Source of the DNA: a virus
Lineage: Duplodnaviria > Caudoviricetes
Length of the DNA: 35,186 bases
IMG/VR virus record: IMGVR_UViG_3300030397_000190
Coordinates: 1 to 35,186 of that record
Reading direction: 5' to 3' (one strand)
Below are positions 12,263 through 29,728 of this stretch, piece after piece. Within the stretch, counting starts at the first letter, position 1. Each line of letters opens with the position of its first letter. The notes under the pieces are model-generated. The model did no database searches. It was given only the letters and a program-made list of their open reading frames with translations, and was not told where the DNA came from. A program made the position numbers and the translations under genes.

Positions 12263-12301
12263 CGCTTTCTCCTGTGGTTTGCGTGTCCGTCTGACACACA
12301 C

Positions 12302-12330
12302 TCTCTCTCACGTTCGCGCCGTGCTGTCCA
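12302..12330 (-). promoter_or_regulatory. Promoter candidate
   Basis: TGGACA-17 nt (ending TGA)-GAGAGA; same layout as 26632-26660. Confidence 0.4.
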
Positions 12331-12351: not shown

Positions 12352-12954
12352 CTAAAATAATCCGGTCTGTGGCGGTGGCTCGCCGCCCCCGTCCGGTAGG
12401 CTTTTGGGTTGCCCGTCGAGAGCTTTCCAGACTTTGTGAGCTTCTTCCCGGTACTCCCGGTGTGTTGAGGCGTCAGGCTCGAGGATTGCGCCCTCGTCAC
12501 AGAAGTGGGCGAATCCCCGGCCCATCTTCTTGCCCCGGTAGGTGTGCTTGTCGAGAGCCGCGTCCGGTATCGCCGGTTTGCGCCCGGCGTTGATGTCGTC
12601 CTGAACGCAAGCCTGCAACTCGTCGCCGATGCGCGTCTTTTCAGCCCGACACAATGCGACGATGGCGCACGTCAGAGGAAGTCGCCACGAATCGTCCTTC
12701 TTGCCGTAGAACGTGTCGGCGTCGTCGAGCCCGGCGCGAGCGAACAAGACTTCCTGCATGGCCGTGGGTCCGACATCTTCCCAACACATGACCCGGAGAC
12801 GCTTGATCAGCGCTTTCCACCATCCGGCGGATTCCATTTCGAACGCCCACCGGACAGCTTCACGCTCCCGGCCGCGTCTTACCTCTTTCTGGATTGCCGA
12901 CTGTACTTCCCATACGTTGTACCCCGAGATTGTCGGCCTTTGGTTGCTCGCCAT
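12352..12954 (-). CDS. RarA/MgsA-like helical domain lacking the AAA+ ATPase
   Basis: SAIQK.VRRG, KRL.V...EDVG, P..ALDKHT.RG..MGRG..HF; no Walker A; GGAG RBS before MASNQ. Confidence 0.75.
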   Translation of the reverse strand: MASNQRPTISGYNVWEVQSAIQKEVRRGREREAVRWAFEMESAGWWKALIKRLRVMCWEDVGPTAMQEVLFARAGLDDADTFYGKKDDSWRLPLTCAIVALCRAEKTRIGDELQACVQDDINAGRKPAIPDAALDKHTYRGKKMGRGFAHFCDEGAILEPDASTHREYREEAHKVWKALDGQPKSLPDGGGEPPPQTGLF

Positions 12955-13099
12955 GTTTGATTCTCCACCATTTGCCACACCGCTTACACTTCAACTCGAC
13001 ATCCGATGGCGCGTGTAACTGAACGAGCCATGCGCCACAATCACAGCGCACGACTCCCAAGTTTTCGACGTTGCGGATGTTCGGCTCGAAGTTCGGCAT
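12860..13099 (-). CDS. Mu Com-like zinc-ribbon protein
   Basis: VRCDCGAWL...VELKCKRCG matches the Com pattern; own promoter and dual-GGA leader. Confidence 0.65.
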   Translation of the reverse strand: MPNFEPNIRNVENLGVVRCDCGAWLVQLHAPSDVELKCKRCGKWWRIKHGEQPKADNLGVQRMGSTVGNPERGKTRPGA

Positions 13100-13131
13100 G
13101 ACTTCTCCTGAGTGCGTTGCGTCCGACACAC

Positions 13132-13160
13132 TCTCTACCTCGCGAGAACGCCTTTGTGAA
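13132..13160 (-). promoter_or_regulatory. Promoter candidate
   Basis: TTCACA-17 nt-TAGAGA. Confidence 0.45.
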
Positions 13161-13172
13161 GGGGTTTCTAGC

Positions 13173-13916
13173 CTATTTCGTCGAGGCGATGGCGGACCTT
13201 CGCTTGACGCGAATCGCCATGTTCAGCGAACCTCGCTCCTTTGCGGAGTCGACGCTGATGTACTGGCCCCACTTTTCCTTGAGGAGCTTCGTGTTCGCTT
13301 CGTTCTCGTCTCCGGTACGGACTCCTTGGTTGCCGCCCTTGCCGGTGAACACCGGGCCGAAGTCGAAATAGAAACGCCGGTCGCACCATGTAATCCGGTG
13401 CTTCATGAGGCTTTGCATGGTGAGGTCAATGTCCTCGCCTCGCTCGAGCCGGGTATCGAAACGAACATCTCGCCCAATGACGCCGAACGCTCCGGCCGAT
13501 GGAATCACGAGCCCGAAAGGGTCCGCTGCGTTGAGTTGCATCGGGTTGGCGTTCCGCTGCCAGCAGAATACCGCGAGCCCCAAGTCCTTTGCGACGTGGT
13601 AGCCGTTGAGGATGATTTGCAGGATGGCTCCGGCGTCGGTCGTCCTTCTGACCCGGCGGCCGATCAGACAGTTCACCGCGCGCAGATCATCGTCGATCAT
13701 GCACACCGGGCCTTTGACGTTTTGGAGTATCCAGCGCCGTATGTGTGCGATGTTGGGTAGCTTCGGATGCGGCAGAACCTTGACCTCGGCCTTCTCGTAT
13801 TCGGCGACTTCGCTTTCGTCGACGCACACGAGCGCCGTGGGCAACAGGGCCTTGAGCCGCTTCATGTTGTCGGCACGTGCCCGGCTTGGAACAACGATGG
13901 TGAGGTCACTTGTCAC
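13173..13916 (-). CDS. GT-A fold glycosyltransferase, TET-associated (TAGT)/GREB1-like
   Basis: IVVPSRARA, R.WIL, MIDDD, EDID..Q, GGN, L..KW motifs. Confidence 0.8.
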   Translation of the reverse strand: MTSDLTIVVPSRARADNMKRLKALLPTALVCVDESEVAEYEKAEVKVLPHPKLPNIAHIRRWILQNVKGPVCMIDDDLRAVNCLIGRRVRRTTDAGAILQIILNGYHVAKDLGLAVFCWQRNANPMQLNAADPFGLVIPSAGAFGVIGRDVRFDTRLERGEDIDLTMQSLMKHRITWCDRRFYFDFGPVFTGKGGNQGVRTGDENEANTKLLKEKWGQYISVDSAKERGSLNMAIRVKRRSAIASTK

Positions 13917-14604
13917 GGAGTAACTCGATCAGCTTCTTGGCGTCGACCGCCCGGCCGAGTCCGATCTTCTTCTTGCCAGCGATGGGCGAGGCGTTGACTT
14001 TCTCGATGCCGAGTTTCTCGCAGATGAACTCCCAATCCATTGTGTCCCGTGCGAGGATCACGACATAGTCGTAATGCTCGAACGGTGCGAGTTCCATCTC
14101 GGGCGGACCATCGCCGGGGGTGTCATCGGGGCCGAGCCCCTCAGACGCGCCGGGTTCGGTGGTGGTGGTCGGCTCCCCGGCGATGGCCTCTAAGCGCAGG
14201 CCATCGTACAGATCAGGAAGCGATGCCTCAACTTCTGCGGCGATGGCTTCTGCCTCGGCCGTGAAGTCGCCTTGTATGCCCGGGTTGTTTGCTGCGAGGT
14301 TGGCCGCCTTCTCGGTGTCCTCGTCCCAATCCACCACCCGTATTGCGAACGAAGCACCGTCGAGAATGAGCCGGGGCGGCTCCGTTTCGAACACCGCCCC
14401 TTGCTCTTTGAGAACGTCGACTCGTTGATGACCGGCGACAAGATGGCCCGTCCGCTTGTTCCAGACGATGCCCGACAAATCCCCAAACTCGCTCGTCGAC
14501 TTCTTGAGGCCATGCTTGGCTGCTATGTCGATGGTGCGCGGGTTGTAGGGTGCTGGCTTTAGATCGTTGAGGCTGGCCAGCTTCCGGGCCTTCTTTCTCG
14601 CCAT
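13906..14604 (-). CDS. ParB/Srx N-terminal domain protein
   Basis: LKPAPYNPR, S..EFG....IVWN..TG.LVAGHQR; C-terminal YDYVV domain; no ParB HTH. Confidence 0.85.
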   Translation of the reverse strand: MARKKARKLASLNDLKPAPYNPRTIDIAAKHGLKKSTSEFGDLSGIVWNKRTGHLVAGHQRVDVLKEQGAVFETEPPRLILDGASFAIRVVDWDEDTEKAANLAANNPGIQGDFTAEAEAIAAEVEASLPDLYDGLRLEAIAGEPTTTTEPGASEGLGPDDTPGDGPPEMELAPFEHYDYVVILARDTMDWEFICEKLGIEKVNASPIAGKKKIGLGRAVDAKKLIELLRDK

Positions 14605-14605
14605 G

Positions 14606-15004
14606 CTACTTTGCCTCGGACGTTTCCGGCTCGTTTTCGTTGAAAGCGAGTTCGCCCTGTGCGTCCTCGAACTCGACCGTGACCGCCTTGTCAATGGCCA
14701 TGTAGAGCGACGTGAACTCGTCGGCCTTGAGTCGCTTGGCCGGGACGAACTGGTACACGTGGCGGCCGTCCTCGTCTGCGGCTTCCGCGTAGACTGCGCG
14801 CTCGAGGAGCTTGCCGTCCATCTCCATGTTCACCGCGCCGGTCAGCTTGAGCGTTCCGAAACGCTCGCGCGCCTGCGACTGCTTGTACTGCTCGGACTTG
14901 AGATCGCTGTCAGCCTGCGACAGCTTGATCTTGTTGCCGCTCGCCTTGTCGGTCGATGCTTTGCCCTCGACCGCGTCGACGATCCAATCACCTTCGATCT
15001 TCAT
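14606..15004 (-). CDS. Hypothetical protein
   Basis: AGGAGG RBS before MKIEG; fills the gap. Confidence 0.7.
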   Translation of the reverse strand: MKIEGDWIVDAVEGKASTDKASGNKIKLSQADSDLKSEQYKQSQARERFGTLKLTGAVNMEMDGKLLERAVYAEAADEDGRHVYQFVPAKRLKADEFTSLYMAIDKAVTVEFEDAQGELAFNENEPETSEAK

Positions 15005-18423: not shown

Positions 18424-18458
18424 AAAGAGCCCCGGAGCTTGGCGTCTCCGGGGCCTTT
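18424..18458 (-). terminator. Intrinsic terminator/attenuator upstream of the replication operon
   Basis: GCCCCGGAG-ACGCCAAG-CTCCGGGGC followed by TCTTT. Confidence 0.65.
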
Positions 18459-26602: not shown

Positions 26603-26631
26603 AGCTTTCTCCTGTGGTTGGTCCTACTCAA

Positions 26632-26660
26632 TCACTCTCACGCCCGGCGGGACGTGTCAA
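26632..26660 (-). promoter_or_regulatory. Promoter candidate
   Basis: Perfect TTGACA; 17 nt ending TGA; non-canonical GAGTGA. Confidence 0.45.
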
Positions 26661-26669
26661 ACCTAAATG

Positions 26670-26743
26670 CCCGTGGTGGTGAGCCGGGCAGGAAGCCAAA
26701 CCCGCCCGGCTCTGGACCCCGGGCATCCGGGGCACCACAGGAA
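26670..26743 (-). ncRNA. Candidate three-way-junction RNA containing anti-RBS sequence
   Basis: Outer stem CCTGTGGTG/CACCACGGG; hairpins CCCCGG/CCGGGG and GAGCCGGGCGGG/CCTGCCCGGCTC; G-U pairs favour the minus strand. Confidence 0.55.
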
Positions 26744-27859
26744 CTATGCCATTGCGCCGGTCAGGATTTCACCGGCCTTTTGCTGGATGTCGATGCGGTC
26801 CCGGCCGTGGCTGAGTGTGTTGGCGTAGGCCGTCAAGCCGTTCGTGACGCTCCACACGCTCAAGTCCTCGCCGCCTAGCTGCGTCTGCGCGAGTTCGACC
26901 GAAGCCTTGGCCACTTTCTTCGTGACGCCCATTTTGTTCAGGCGTTTTTCAGCGCCCTCGACGTTCGGCGCGAACTCGACATCGGCCGCTTTGTGCAGGA
27001 AGTCAAACTCCTCGTCGGTGATGGTTGTACCCATCTCGGCGACTTGCTTCTTGAACTCCCCGAAGCCGTCGACAATGCCCTGTCGGTGGACGACTTGGTA
27101 GATCATCTGTTCCTGCATCCCCCAAATCAGGAGGTTGGCGCAAATGTCGCGAAACAAGAAGCTCGTCCAGCCGAACATGCGGTCGCCTGTCTCGCTGTTC
27201 CAGACAGCGAGCCCCCGGCGCAGGCCGCCAAGGTCATCGGACTGGCCGCCGTCGCCGTCCTTCATGAAGAACATGAAGCTCGAGCGGTCATCACGCACGA
27301 GGCACTTCGGCTTACCTTCCTCGGGGCCGCTGTAGCGGAAGGTCGGAGAGGCCGGAGTCCAGCCGGAGCCCAAGAGCCACCGGTCGACTTCGCCGCAAAC
27401 ATCGTCGTCCCACAGGCGCTTGTACTGTGAGCCCGTGAATGCGCGCACCTTCTGTACGCCGTCGACGTTCTCAAGGAGAATCTGACCCACGCGGCTGTCC
27501 TCGCGCGGCATGAGTTCGTTGATGACCCGGCTGCGCGTCTCCGGCTTGAGGCGCTCGATCATGCCCAAGTTGACGCCCGCCATGCGGACAATCTGCTTGT
27601 AGCTGTAGTTGGTGAGTTCGCCCTTGATCTCGGTTTCACCGTCAAGGACCGTGATCGTCTCCGGCTTCTGCATCTCGCCGGGAAGCACCGCCACGTGCTT
27701 GAGGTCGACGACATGCTCGGTGCAACGAGCCCGCTGATCCTTGGCGTCCTGCCACAACTCCTGAAACGAGTCGTACTTGCTTTCTTCTGGCGCGTTGAAC
27801 ACTTCTTTGTTTGCGAGGTTGTTGTAAGTCTGCTCGCCCTTTTCACTCGTTACCTGCAT
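26744..27859 (-). CDS. DUF932/DUF945-like protein
   Basis: RA..G..Y.R.WD, G..V.NSE.G, F.FR.IC.N, H.., W...NG.T..A. Confidence 0.7.
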   Translation of the reverse strand: MQVTSEKGEQTYNNLANKEVFNAPEESKYDSFQELWQDAKDQRARCTEHVVDLKHVAVLPGEMQKPETITVLDGETEIKGELTNYSYKQIVRMAGVNLGMIERLKPETRSRVINELMPREDSRVGQILLENVDGVQKVRAFTGSQYKRLWDDDVCGEVDRWLLGSGWTPASPTFRYSGPEEGKPKCLVRDDRSSFMFFMKDGDGGQSDDLGGLRRGLAVWNSETGDRMFGWTSFLFRDICANLLIWGMQEQMIYQVVHRQGIVDGFGEFKKQVAEMGTTITDEEFDFLHKAADVEFAPNVEGAEKRLNKMGVTKKVAKASVELAQTQLGGEDLSVWSVTNGLTAYANTLSHGRDRIDIQQKAGEILTGAMA

Positions 27860-27895: not shown

Positions 27896-28126
27896 TTAGA
27901 GTTCGTCCGGCCCCAACACCGCCACCCGGAACTCGACGCCGGGGTGGTCACGCTCGAGTTCTTGGACAAGCGCGTCCGCCTCGTCCTCGGTGAGTAGTTC
28001 ACCGCTGACTACTTTGCGGGCACCGCGCGCCGGAACCTCGAGAACCTCGAACCGGCGCTCCGGCAGTTCGATGTATTCGGGTCCGCGTGTTTTCCAAGCG
28101 TCGTAACCGGGAAGTGAGTGAGACAT
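27896..28126 (-). CDS. Hypothetical protein (first early gene)
   Basis: LPGYDAWKT motif; dual-GGA leader. Confidence 0.65.
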   Translation of the reverse strand: MSHSLPGYDAWKTRGPEYIELPERRFEVLEVPARGARKVVSGELLTEDEADALVQELERDHPGVEFRVAVLGPDEL

Positions 28127-28164
28127 GGCTTTGCTCCTGTGGTCGTGTTGCGTCCGTTGCTCAG

Positions 28165-28193
28165 ATTCTCAGGCCCATCGCGAAAGCAGTCGA
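28165..28193 (-). promoter_or_regulatory. Early promoter candidate
   Basis: TCGACT-17 nt-GAGAAT, downstream of the terminator. Confidence 0.45.
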
Positions 28194-28229
28194 GCCAATT
28201 CGGAAATTCCCGAATCTGTGAATTTGCAG

Positions 28230-28261
28230 AAACGCAAACGAGCCGCCCGAAGGCAGCCCGT
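28230..28261 (-). terminator. Intrinsic terminator ending the late/lysis operon
   Basis: ACGGGCTGCC-TTCG-GGCGGCTCGT (C-UUCG-G loop) then TTGCGTTT. Confidence 0.7.
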
Positions 28262-28266
28262 GTTTT

Positions 28267-28390
28267 GCATATCCGCTTTACTGCCGGGGAGTCCTGTGCG
28301 CGGTCAGGACTCCCCCATATCCGTTGGGCCGCTTCTCGGCCGTGGCTACTACGTTCCGCGCACGCCTCGCTTCTCGTCGATGGGTTATGC
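28267..28390 (-). ncRNA. Candidate multi-stem pseudoknotted RNA
   Basis: 11-bp hairpin whose loop CCGCGCA is complementary to upstream TGCGCGG; GCATA/TATGC closure; internal direct repeats. Confidence 0.55.
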
Positions 28391-28393
28391 CGT

Positions 28394-28777
28394 CTAACTG
28401 GCGAGGTCTAGCACTCGCCCGAATATGCTGCTGATGATGTTCCCGGCGTGTGTTGCCGATGCCGCTGCCACGTCCCGCATGGCACGCATCACTTCGATTG
28501 CGACGACTGCCTTCAAGTCCTGCAACGTCGATTCGACGATTGCGGCTTCTCGTCCGACGTGCTGGCCCATGCGGCGCTTGATTTCAATTTTGGCGAGATC
28601 GACCATCGCGGCCTGCGCGAGTTTGCGCTTCTCGCCGGTCAAGTCCTTGATGGTGCCCTTGCCGATTTCCTCGACTTTGGCCCACCAAGCCTTGCCGATC
28701 TCGAGCGACTCCTCCTTGAGTTCGTCAAGGAAGTGTTCGGCCTTGTTCTTCTTCGGGGCTTTCTTTTCGTCCGACAT
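28394..28777 (-). CDS. Helical hypothetical protein in the lysis-type block
   Basis: Starts 2 nt after the lipoprotein stop; amphipathic C-terminus. Confidence 0.65.
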   Translation of the reverse strand: MSDEKKAPKKNKAEHFLDELKEESLEIGKAWWAKVEEIGKGTIKDLTGEKRKLAQAAMVDLAKIEIKRRMGQHVGREAAIVESTLQDLKAVVAIEVMRAMRDVAAASATHAGNIISSIFGRVLDLAS

Positions 28778-28779
28778 AG

Positions 28780-29085
28780 CTAGTCGCCCTTGTTCCTAGT
28801 GTAGCCGATCTCGGCTGCGAGTTCGTCCGCGAGAATGTTCGAGGATTGGTACTTCCGTTCCCGGCGCTCGATCTTCTCCTCGCGCGTGCCGTCTTGGTCG
28901 TCCTTGAACCAAGGTTCGAACTCGCCCTCCTCATTCTGGCGGTAGGCGTCCGTCACCATCTCGTTCCACTCCTCGACAACGGAGTCGGTCTGCATGATGT
29001 ACGCCTTCGCCGTGTCCTCCTTCACGCTCATGCAACCGGCGAGCGCGAGAATGGCGACGAAGCAAATCAACGAAAACAGTTTCAT
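28780..29085 (-). CDS. Lipoprotein (possible spanin-like component)
   Basis: Signal peptide with LAGC lipobox; dual-GGA leader. Confidence 0.7.
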   Translation of the reverse strand: MKLFSLICFVAILALAGCMSVKEDTAKAYIMQTDSVVEEWNEMVTDAYRQNEEGEFEPWFKDDQDGTREEKIERRERKYQSSNILADELAAEIGYTRNKGD

Positions 29086-29117
29086 GGATTCTCCTGTTCG
29101 GTGCGTGCGTCCGAAGT

Positions 29118-29303
29118 CTACTTGTCTTTCTTCTTCTCGCGCAAGTGAAATCCGAAGCGCGCGAGAATCGCGAGGACTAGAGCGCCGATTGCCGGGATCA
29201 TCGCTTCATCAAGTTCGATGCCCGCTTGCTTGAGCAGCGCCATGACGATCATGCCCGCCGCAACCGCTGCCGTGAGGTCCGACGCTGTCTTTGGCTTGTT
29301 CAT
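29118..29303 (-). CDS. Small 2-TM protein, holin candidate
   Basis: 61 aa, two hydrophobic helices, basic C-terminus. Confidence 0.6.
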   Translation of the reverse strand: MNKPKTASDLTAAVAAGMIVMALLKQAGIELDEAMIPAIGALVLAILARFGFHLREKKKDK

Positions 29304-29728
29304 GCCTGATTCTCCTGTATCCGAGCGACCTGCCCGCGCAAATCGCTGATGCTGCTACTGTGCTTGTCGAGCCGCTTGTTCGTTTCTTCCTGCCCCTTCG
29401 AAAATTCCTCGTGCTTCTGTGCCCCACGGTCTAGCCGGTCCTCAATCTTCGCGAATCCATCGTCCATCTGCATACCCTGCCTGACGATTGAGTCGTTCAT
29501 GGTGTTCATGCCGTTGAGCGTCTCGGTTTTGTGGTCCGACAAGTCCTTCCCGAAAGCCTCAACTGCGGCCGTGTTCTTGTCCAACGCTGCAAGGTGTCGG
29601 TCGAACAGCTTCTTCCCGATGTAGGCGAGTAGGCCTAGTACCGTCGTGCCAGTCGCACCGATCCCGAACAACTCGCCGATGTTTATGCTCGACTCGGCTT
29701 GCAAGAGTGTGAGTACATAGATCATCAC
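29300..29728 (-). CDS. Membrane-anchored coiled-coil protein (holin/spanin-like)
   Basis: N-terminal TM then coiled coil; ATGA overlaps. Confidence 0.6.
   Translation of the reverse strand: MMIYVLTLLQAESSINIGELFGIGATGTTVLGLLAYIGKKLFDRHLAALDKNTAAVEAFGKDLSDHKTETLNGMNTMNDSIVRQGMQMDDGFAKIEDRLDRGAQKHEEFSKGQEETNKRLDKHSSSISDLRGQVARIQENQA

Follow-up and report, generated by a model that had tools for sequence, protein, structure and literature searches.

According to the portion of PMC6028588 considered here, CsrA dimers bind two ANGGA sites that lie about 10 to 55 nt apart. The RNA CsrB, as described in an excerpt of PMC7652899, has CAGGA as its repeat core and carries 22 GGA motifs. The TwoAYGGAY RNA is proposed, in the section of PMC4333381 available to us, to bind CsrA with two sites for one dimer, and the partial text of bioRxiv 10.64898/2026.09.22.753630 describes an extended form in Pseudomonadota with extra hairpins and a 3′ pseudoknot. 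PMC2864571, likewise in part, was also among the literature compared with the element described below.

Here, we analyzed a candidate structured RNA of 124 nt, predicted on the minus strand at positions 28267 to 28390 of a 35,186-nt virus record that is about 48% complete and is used in its entirety (the window). A sequence-only reading had placed a pseudoknotted RNA there, between a lysis block and a late terminator, and had suggested a CsrA sponge, an oligomerizing RNA or a ribozyme.

Genomic setting of the element

The scan of the window covered 54 ORFs, 50 on the minus strand and 4 on the plus strand, and all clear matches to Pfam or PHROG families were on the minus strand. The matched genes code for the portal, the large and small terminase, RusA, HNH, DnaB, RecT, RecE, an AAA ATPase and a phrog_1362 protein. 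In minus-strand order, four small ORFs ending at 28394 come after large unannotated proteins, with one weak "minor tail" match among the latter, and are followed by 132 non-coding bases. Downstream of these come a terminator-like hairpin at 28238-28261, small ORFs and recombination genes. The labels "late" and "early" that we use for the two blocks are inferred from this gene order. The term "lysis block" was not confirmed: Pfam and PHROG gave no holin, endolysin or spanin match; 29300-29728 has a weak "lipoprotein" match and nothing stronger, and a lipobox-like signal in 28780-29085 was spotted by eye. Among cultured phages, the nearest have terminases 32 to 38% identical to that of the window, and the best terminase and DnaB matches are at 31 to 38%. 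These values are too low to point to a host.

The ORF immediately upstream of the element (28394-28777, minus strand) codes for 127 residues with no assigned function. Over 28267-28390 itself there is no minus-strand ORF of at least 50 codons, in agreement with the earlier statement that no credible ORF covers the region. On the plus strand, ORFs of 90 and 97 aa overlap the element; these two had no PHROG match and a single Pfam match below the cutoff. A hidden peptide was rejected because the one minus-strand frame open across the region has no start codon, and read-through of the upstream stop codon was rejected because another stop follows two codons later. A promoter scan of the locus revealed no sigma-70-like promoter. 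The element was present without a single letter difference in three DNA runs of one study, two of which are perhaps the source of the record itself, and no RNA run containing it came up. In one of these runs (X3), the contigs break within 29093-29245 with unlike loose ends, and toward the upstream side the depth increases from 112 to 253, which suggests a co-occurring variant carrying a different gene in the small-ORF block.

Predicted fold

The predicted fold comprises a closing helix (P1), five hairpins on one multiloop (P2 to P6) and a pseudoknot between the P3 and P5 loops. The 5′ strand of P1, GCAUA (28386-28390), starts 3 nt past the stop codon of the 28394-28777 ORF and pairs with UAUGC at 28267-28271, with pair probabilities of 0.94 to 0.98. 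P2 (28367-28380) is a weak hairpin of 3 to 4 bp that contains the first copy of CGAGAAGCG. P3 (28344-28366) has a 3-bp stem and a 17-nt loop, and its knot strand, UGCGCGG (28356-28362), overlaps a GCGGA site. The second CGAGAAGCG copy lies in P4 (28327-28341), the hairpin GGCCG-AGAAG-CGGCC. The segment ACGGAUAUG (28316-28324) is predicted to be single-stranded; it holds the sole exposed ANGGA/AYGGAY site found by the motif scan and represents the first half of the leader-like motif discussed below. P5 (28286-28315) is a perfect 11-bp hairpin whose loop, CCGCGCA (28297-28303), provides the second knot strand, and the second half of the leader-like motif, CACAGGA (28292-28298), is locked in its loop and stem. 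P6 (28275-28284) is a marginal 2-bp hairpin with an AGUAAA loop. The second copy of CGGAUAUG, with a GCGGAU site (28267-28276), continues into the 3′ strand of P1.

The individual features noted by the sequence-only reading were thus recovered, namely the closing helix, the P4 and P5 hairpins, the complementarity between the two loops, the direct repeats (CGAGAAGCG at 28330 and 28368; CGGAUAUG at 28268 and 28316) and several GGA motifs, of which the element has five. The loop-loop pairing extends to 8 bp once the top pair of the P5 stem opens. Against a cost of 3.7 kcal/mol for freeing both knot strands stands a duplex energy of −12.4 kcal/mol before loop penalties. The UUCG hairpin at 28238-28261 was also found; it has 10 pairs, G-U included, and is terminator-like with a weak U-run. 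The scan gave 4 terminator-like sites, compared with 2.3 ± 1.8 in shuffled sequences.

The fold occupies 124 of the 132 bases between the stop codon and the predicted terminator, P1 starting 3 nt beyond the former and stopping 5 nt short of the latter. The body helices are Watson-Crick throughout, so that pairing by itself leaves the strand unfixed. On the transcribed strand, 24 of the 48 unpaired positions are A, and two loops have the sequence GAGAA. An alternative four-way-junction fold formed via CCCAU/AUGGG was discarded, being 6 kcal/mol worse with RNA parameters; it was favored with DNA parameters.

Contribution of chance to the fold

The folding z-score was −2.81 on the minus strand, where none of 200 shuffled sequences was equally stable, and −1.26 on the plus strand, where 23 of 200 were. 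Among the 876 minus-strand windows of 124 nt, the element ranks 17th. Taken alone, its folding energy is good, not unique. The best-folding 124-nt minus-strand segment, at 27-150 (z of −6.1), consists of five short hairpins past the portal gene, two of which share a GGAAGCCC top.

The P5 stem is the longest of the five perfect hairpins of at least 9 bp in the whole contig. With thresholds chosen after the features had been seen, 20,000 shuffles of the element yielded an 11-bp stem twice, a complement to the 7-nt loop 123 times and both together once, and two 8-mer repeats occurred in 127 of them. Genome-wide, 108 of 7,014 windows have two such repeats, which are therefore not special. The loop motif has a third copy, which was set aside as evidence, since 200 of 2,000 shuffles also have one.

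Together, the shuffles, the A-rich unpaired positions, the way the element fits exactly into the interval from stop codon to terminator, and the exchange of the slot described below argue for the proposed structured RNA on the minus strand. In our model, the element has a function as an RNA structure, of whatever role, with high probability.

Searches for families and homologues

The sequence-only reading had recognized no family, and Rfam 15 gave no match in the window. At E values up to 10, the 28100-28500 region had two sub-threshold matches only, one of which is the terminator hairpin itself (DUF3800-VI, 16.9 bits versus the 35 needed). The element was unmatched by the PrrB_RsmZ (RF00166) and phi29 pRNA (RF00044) models. 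TwoAYGGAY (RF01731) had no match at the locus, its best score in the contig being 11.8 bits elsewhere versus 43. The FMN riboswitch model (RF00050) was unmatched at E values up to 10, and it did match 10 of 14 control genomes. ARAGORN found no tRNA or tmRNA gene.

Searched by blastn with 251 nt, a set of 50,697 phage and 72,556 plasmid records gave short matches and no homologue, and a DNA search for the element in five records was empty. The pattern of two CGAGAAGCG copies occurred at 120 or more loci in 22 of 64 parts of the viral contigs, with the fold at none of them. Likewise, none of the 55 loci with the CGAGAAGCG..CGGATATG pattern, or of the four GTDB-contig and two viral-contig loci with three-box patterns, has the element. 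The protein anchors 28394-28777, 26744-27859 and the AAA ATPase identified no viral locus; the anchor search gave a metagenome locus, L176 (66%, with 57 of 64 parts scanned), and three distant viral loci. A covariance model built from the single 124-nt sequence, an insensitive tool, recovered the element itself but nothing in the record of the relative G001 described below (filters off, best E of 0.2; both phage records are partial, at 48% and 37%), and no homologue in 27 further records. Four motif strings were absent from the six supplementary files of PMC10690425 that were searched. The element thus looks to be a singleton among everything searched.

An exchangeable slot in the phage lineage

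A search with the ribosome-site motif returned 35 loci, one of which was syntenic with the window (L196). The record to which it belongs, G001, is 37% complete, and its portal and terminase are 71% and 67% identical to those of the window. Two other terminase relatives, P0158 and P0159, are at 63 to 65%. Another part of G001 codes for homologues of 28394-28777 (50% identical) and 28780-29085 (67%), and the equivalent block there runs upstream as far as a P22-type coat gene. Next to the 28394-28777 homologue, G001 has a 125-aa ORF instead of the RNA. This Cys/His-rich orphan (L221:275-652, minus strand) overlaps the upstream stop codon and has no Pfam or PHROG match, and its Atlas leads are below 0.9. 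Beyond it, a hairpin with a T-run takes the terminator's place, followed by a block matching 28127-28198 (minus strand), which bears putative promoter-like boxes and the two-GGA leader of a 76-aa ORF.

In G001, the sequences on either side are retained and what lies between them is replaced. The element is therefore exchangeable cargo that is dispensable to the lineage and behaves as a unit. Retention of the upstream protein in G001 without the RNA indicates that the two are not tied to each other. The element is likely a genuine phage RNA, as yet without a class, that occupies a cargo slot.

Several other features of the lineage were noted. Right past the terminator lies an imperfect, operator-like palindrome (28202-28217, minus strand) that is partly kept in G001. 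A GTGAGAGTG-like box recurs upstream of the leader motif at 28127-28198, 26620-26650, 12290-12320 and the equivalent places of G001, and a TTGGCT-GACTGC block past the terminator is conserved between the window and G001. These boxes possibly correspond to a phage- or host-specific promoter that is not sigma-70-like. Adjacent genes at 12352-14694, which are ParB-like/methyltransferase-like, TET-associated glycosyltransferase-like and MgsA-C-like and are 56 to 72% identical in G001, possibly form a DNA-modification module.

A two-GGA leader motif and its copy in the element

Across the lineage, leaders share a strand-specific motif that resembles CsrA sites, ACGGACGC followed by ACCACAGGAG. Two-GGA leaders were found in the window at 29113, 28157, 26381, 24268, 23071, 12290 and 8414, and there are six in G001; the RecE and RecT genes are among those that have them. 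Of the leaders of the two phages, 6 of 18 and 6 of 9 have a CGGAC that precedes an ACAGGAG ribosome site by no more than 35 nt, with a background of 7 to 8%. The ACGGA-N5-30-ACAGGA pattern occurs five times in the window and six times in G001 on the coding strands, and not at all on the opposite strands. For 10 of these 11 copies, a start codon is just downstream and the GGA spacing is 14 to 27 nt. The eleventh is the element: its spacing is 28, it lacks a start codon, and it has GGAC in place of the GGAG of most leaders.

This link to the leaders had been proposed from the sequence before the shuffles were run, and the pattern arose in 33 of 20,000 shuffled elements (6 for a tighter form and 153 for a looser one). 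It is the part of the proposed CsrA sponge that stood. The notion of a multi-site sponge did not fare as well, given GGA motifs that are unenriched and mostly paired. Five GGA motifs are ordinary, being reached by 4,176 of 20,000 shuffles and by 10% of the genome windows, and two CGGAY copies arise in 1,767 of 20,000 shuffles (9%). In the predicted fold, three of the five are entirely or largely in helices and the knot occupies a fourth, leaving one open with the knot and two without it; another can be opened for 4.9 kcal/mol. Antisense action on phage mRNA was discarded, as an 11-nt complement is absent.

The spacing of the sites would suit a single dimer. ACGGA and GCGGA are 48 nt apart, and ACGGA and CAGGA 28 nt, both within the 10 to 55 nt range of CsrA. 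The two CGGAU copies are predicted to open for 4.9 kcal/mol at the loss of two marginal 2-bp helices, with the knot strands left free, although the second of them is a GCGGA rather than an ANGGA site. Exposing the CAGGA half would cost 13.7 kcal/mol, and a fold that presents both GGAU in hairpin loops scores −26.0 rather than −49.5, a penalty of 23 kcal/mol. The lack of GGA enrichment, the locked CAGGA and the poor loop fold disfavor a simple sponge and leave a two-site decoy workable.

As the best of the explanations considered, though one short of being probable, we tentatively put forward that the element is a pseudoknotted RNA at the 3′ end of the late transcript acting as a low-valency decoy for a CsrA/RsmA-type repressor of the two-GGA leaders. 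It would be transcribed from upstream as the 3′ end of the operon, with transcription ending at 28238, and would stay as a 3′ UTR or be cut out. P1, P4, P5 and the knot would form the scaffold, and the two CGGAU copies, 48 nt apart and flanking P5, would be open to both faces of one dimer, so that one CsrA-type dimer would be bound per RNA. An abundant late RNA of this kind would draw the repressor off leaders such as those of RecE, RecT and a number of small genes, which would sustain their translation.

Several observations count against the decoy. G001 has the leaders and no such RNA in its sequenced part, and no homologue was found that would attest conservation of the fold or of the sites. 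Of 12 leaders, only about half are predicted to have their GGA open; in some leaders, ACGGAC is predicted in a hairpin loop. In addition, neither phage record (48% and 37% complete) has a csrA gene. The leader motif could alternatively be a DNA element.

A second RNA candidate

Another structured RNA candidate lies directly after the phrog_1362 gene, at 26670-26742 on the minus strand. Its counterpart is at about 1398-1470 of L176, the metagenome locus that carries a phrog_1362 gene and overlaps the end of the G001 record by 123 identical bases. The 9-bp closing helix is identical in the two loci and the interior differs; their comparison, restricted to two sequences, gives 16 consensus pairs and 1 compensatory change. 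In 10 genes, the ACCACAGGAG ribosome site is complementary to the first strand of this candidate over 9 to 11 bases (predicted at −15 to −21 kcal/mol). Predictions in cis have it pairing with the site of the following gene while a long hairpin forms. Rfam gave nothing above threshold. On sequence comparison, the 26670-26742 candidate is better supported by conservation than 28267-28390.

The two RNAs might take part in a common switch, in which a GGA-reading repressor would keep a dozen phage genes down, the 28267-28390 decoy would release them late, and the 26670-26742 RNA would shut them again. We regard this scheme as improbable. Within such a three-part switch, the element would be a phage-encoded CsrA decoy with a new fold, perhaps one that loop-loop oligomers render multivalent.

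Other explanations for the element

The structured RNA might have a partner other than CsrA, for instance in protein binding or anti-defense, in which case the GAGAA loops could serve as tertiary or binding modules resembling T-loops. Interdigitated double T-loops consist of two pentanucleotide T-loops arranged head to tail with non-canonical pairs, according to the available parts of PMC4919913 and PMC3664808. The layout of the element, a complex fold directly followed by a terminator, is that of drum, skipping-rope, FuFi-1 and DUF3800-I in the portion of PMC5737381 considered here. The fold statistics, the A-rich loops and the cargo slot that the element has in common with the orphan Cys/His-rich ORF of G001 also agree with this explanation. 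However, those Rfam families are unmatched beyond the terminator hairpin, the upstream protein does without the RNA in G001, the third copy of the loop motif is within chance, and the leader-like motif is left unexplained. We consider an alternative partner almost as probable as the decoy.

The element may also have no selected function, being a G+C-rich remnant or a chance cluster of hairpins left by exchange in the slot. It is a singleton missing from the one relative, 16 of the 876 windows have better z-scores, some of them within genes, and its Watson-Crick-only body helices do not fix the strand. A looser stem-plus-kiss descriptor also matches 18429-18454, one site in G001 and six sites in 870 kb of unrelated loci. 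What makes a remnant unlikely is that stem and loop complement co-occurred in a single shuffle out of 20,000, that the stem is the longest perfect hairpin of the contig, that the closing helix comes as near as 3 and 5 nt to the two ends of the interval, and that the unpaired positions on the transcribed strand are 50% A.

A cis-acting 3′-end element that stabilizes the late mRNA or tunes terminator read-through into the following operon would be consistent with an RNA that fills the 3′ UTR. In pre-terminator prefixes, the RNA is predicted to pair with the 5′ strand of the terminator, and a longer prefix moves P1 to the first CGGAUAUG copy, such that alternative folds exist. Nevertheless, the terminator hairpin is predicted in every prefix containing it, G001 has a protein gene at this spot, and the following operon has its own conserved promoter-like block, which makes such a role quite unlikely.

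The element presumably bears some resemblance to the hairpin ribozyme. A ribozyme of a class not yet described, cleaving itself and so releasing the 3′ end of the late mRNA, would accord with the compact pseudoknot, the purine-rich junctions and a site just past the stop codon, but it is very unlikely, as Rfam ribozymes were unmatched at E values up to 10, none of five catalytic-core patterns was present, and downstream terminators are judged inconsistent with self-cleavage in the part of PMC5737381 available, where three such RNAs were uncleaved.

Equally improbable is a phi29 pRNA-like oligomer built by pairing of each copy's P3 loop with the P5 loop of its neighbor: the loops are complementary (−12.4 kcal/mol) and the length is near the 118 positions of RF00044, but that model is unmatched, nothing disfavors the intramolecular knot, and genes for the portal and for both the small and the large terminase are present. 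Terminase-type packaging differs from the packaging type of phi29.

Significance

If the decoy explanation is true, the phage uses a global regulator of host type to control the translation of its own genes and carries a compact RNA antagonist of that regulator. Neither a phage CsrA decoy nor this RNA was found in the literature searched, whose coverage did not include subscription papers. Whatever its function, a 124-nt RNA predicted to form a six-way pseudoknotted fold, and whose slot is taken by a protein gene in the relative, offers a small and cheap target for probing and structure determination, its value being limited by its singleton status.

Comparison with known systems

We take the element to resemble the FMN riboswitch in having a P1 and five hairpins, with a look-alike last hairpin. 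It differs by its lack of a match to RF00050, its 3′ UTR position and neighbors without a flavin-related match. Like phi29 pRNA, it is about 120 nt long and has two complementary loops, whereas no model match was found and the window has packaging genes of the terminase type.

As in drum, skipping-rope, FuFi-1 and DUF3800-I, a complex fold precedes an intrinsic terminator outside 5′ UTRs (PMC5737381, in the part considered), but the element has no Rfam match and no tie to a neighboring protein family.

With CsrB/CsrC and RsmX/Y/Z, the element shares the form of a terminator-ended RNA with ANGGA and CAGGA motifs, and the phage leaders share the two-site layout that CsrA reads in the CsrB/Rsm systems. 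It differs from CsrB by having 5 mostly paired GGA motifs instead of 22 and by its long stable stems and knot. Unlike CsrB/Rsm RNAs, it has no promoter of its own that we found and no RF00166 match.

The TwoAYGGAY RNA (RF01731) has a similar size, a basal stem closing several hairpins and two YGGAY-type sites, as does the element. By contrast, the element has one true AYGGAY, its sites are predicted in linkers rather than in terminal loops, and it is single-copy in a phage whereas TwoAYGGAY is multicopy in chromosomes. Although the RF01731 model does not match it, the element would, by analogy, work most like TwoAYGGAY as that RNA has been proposed to act.
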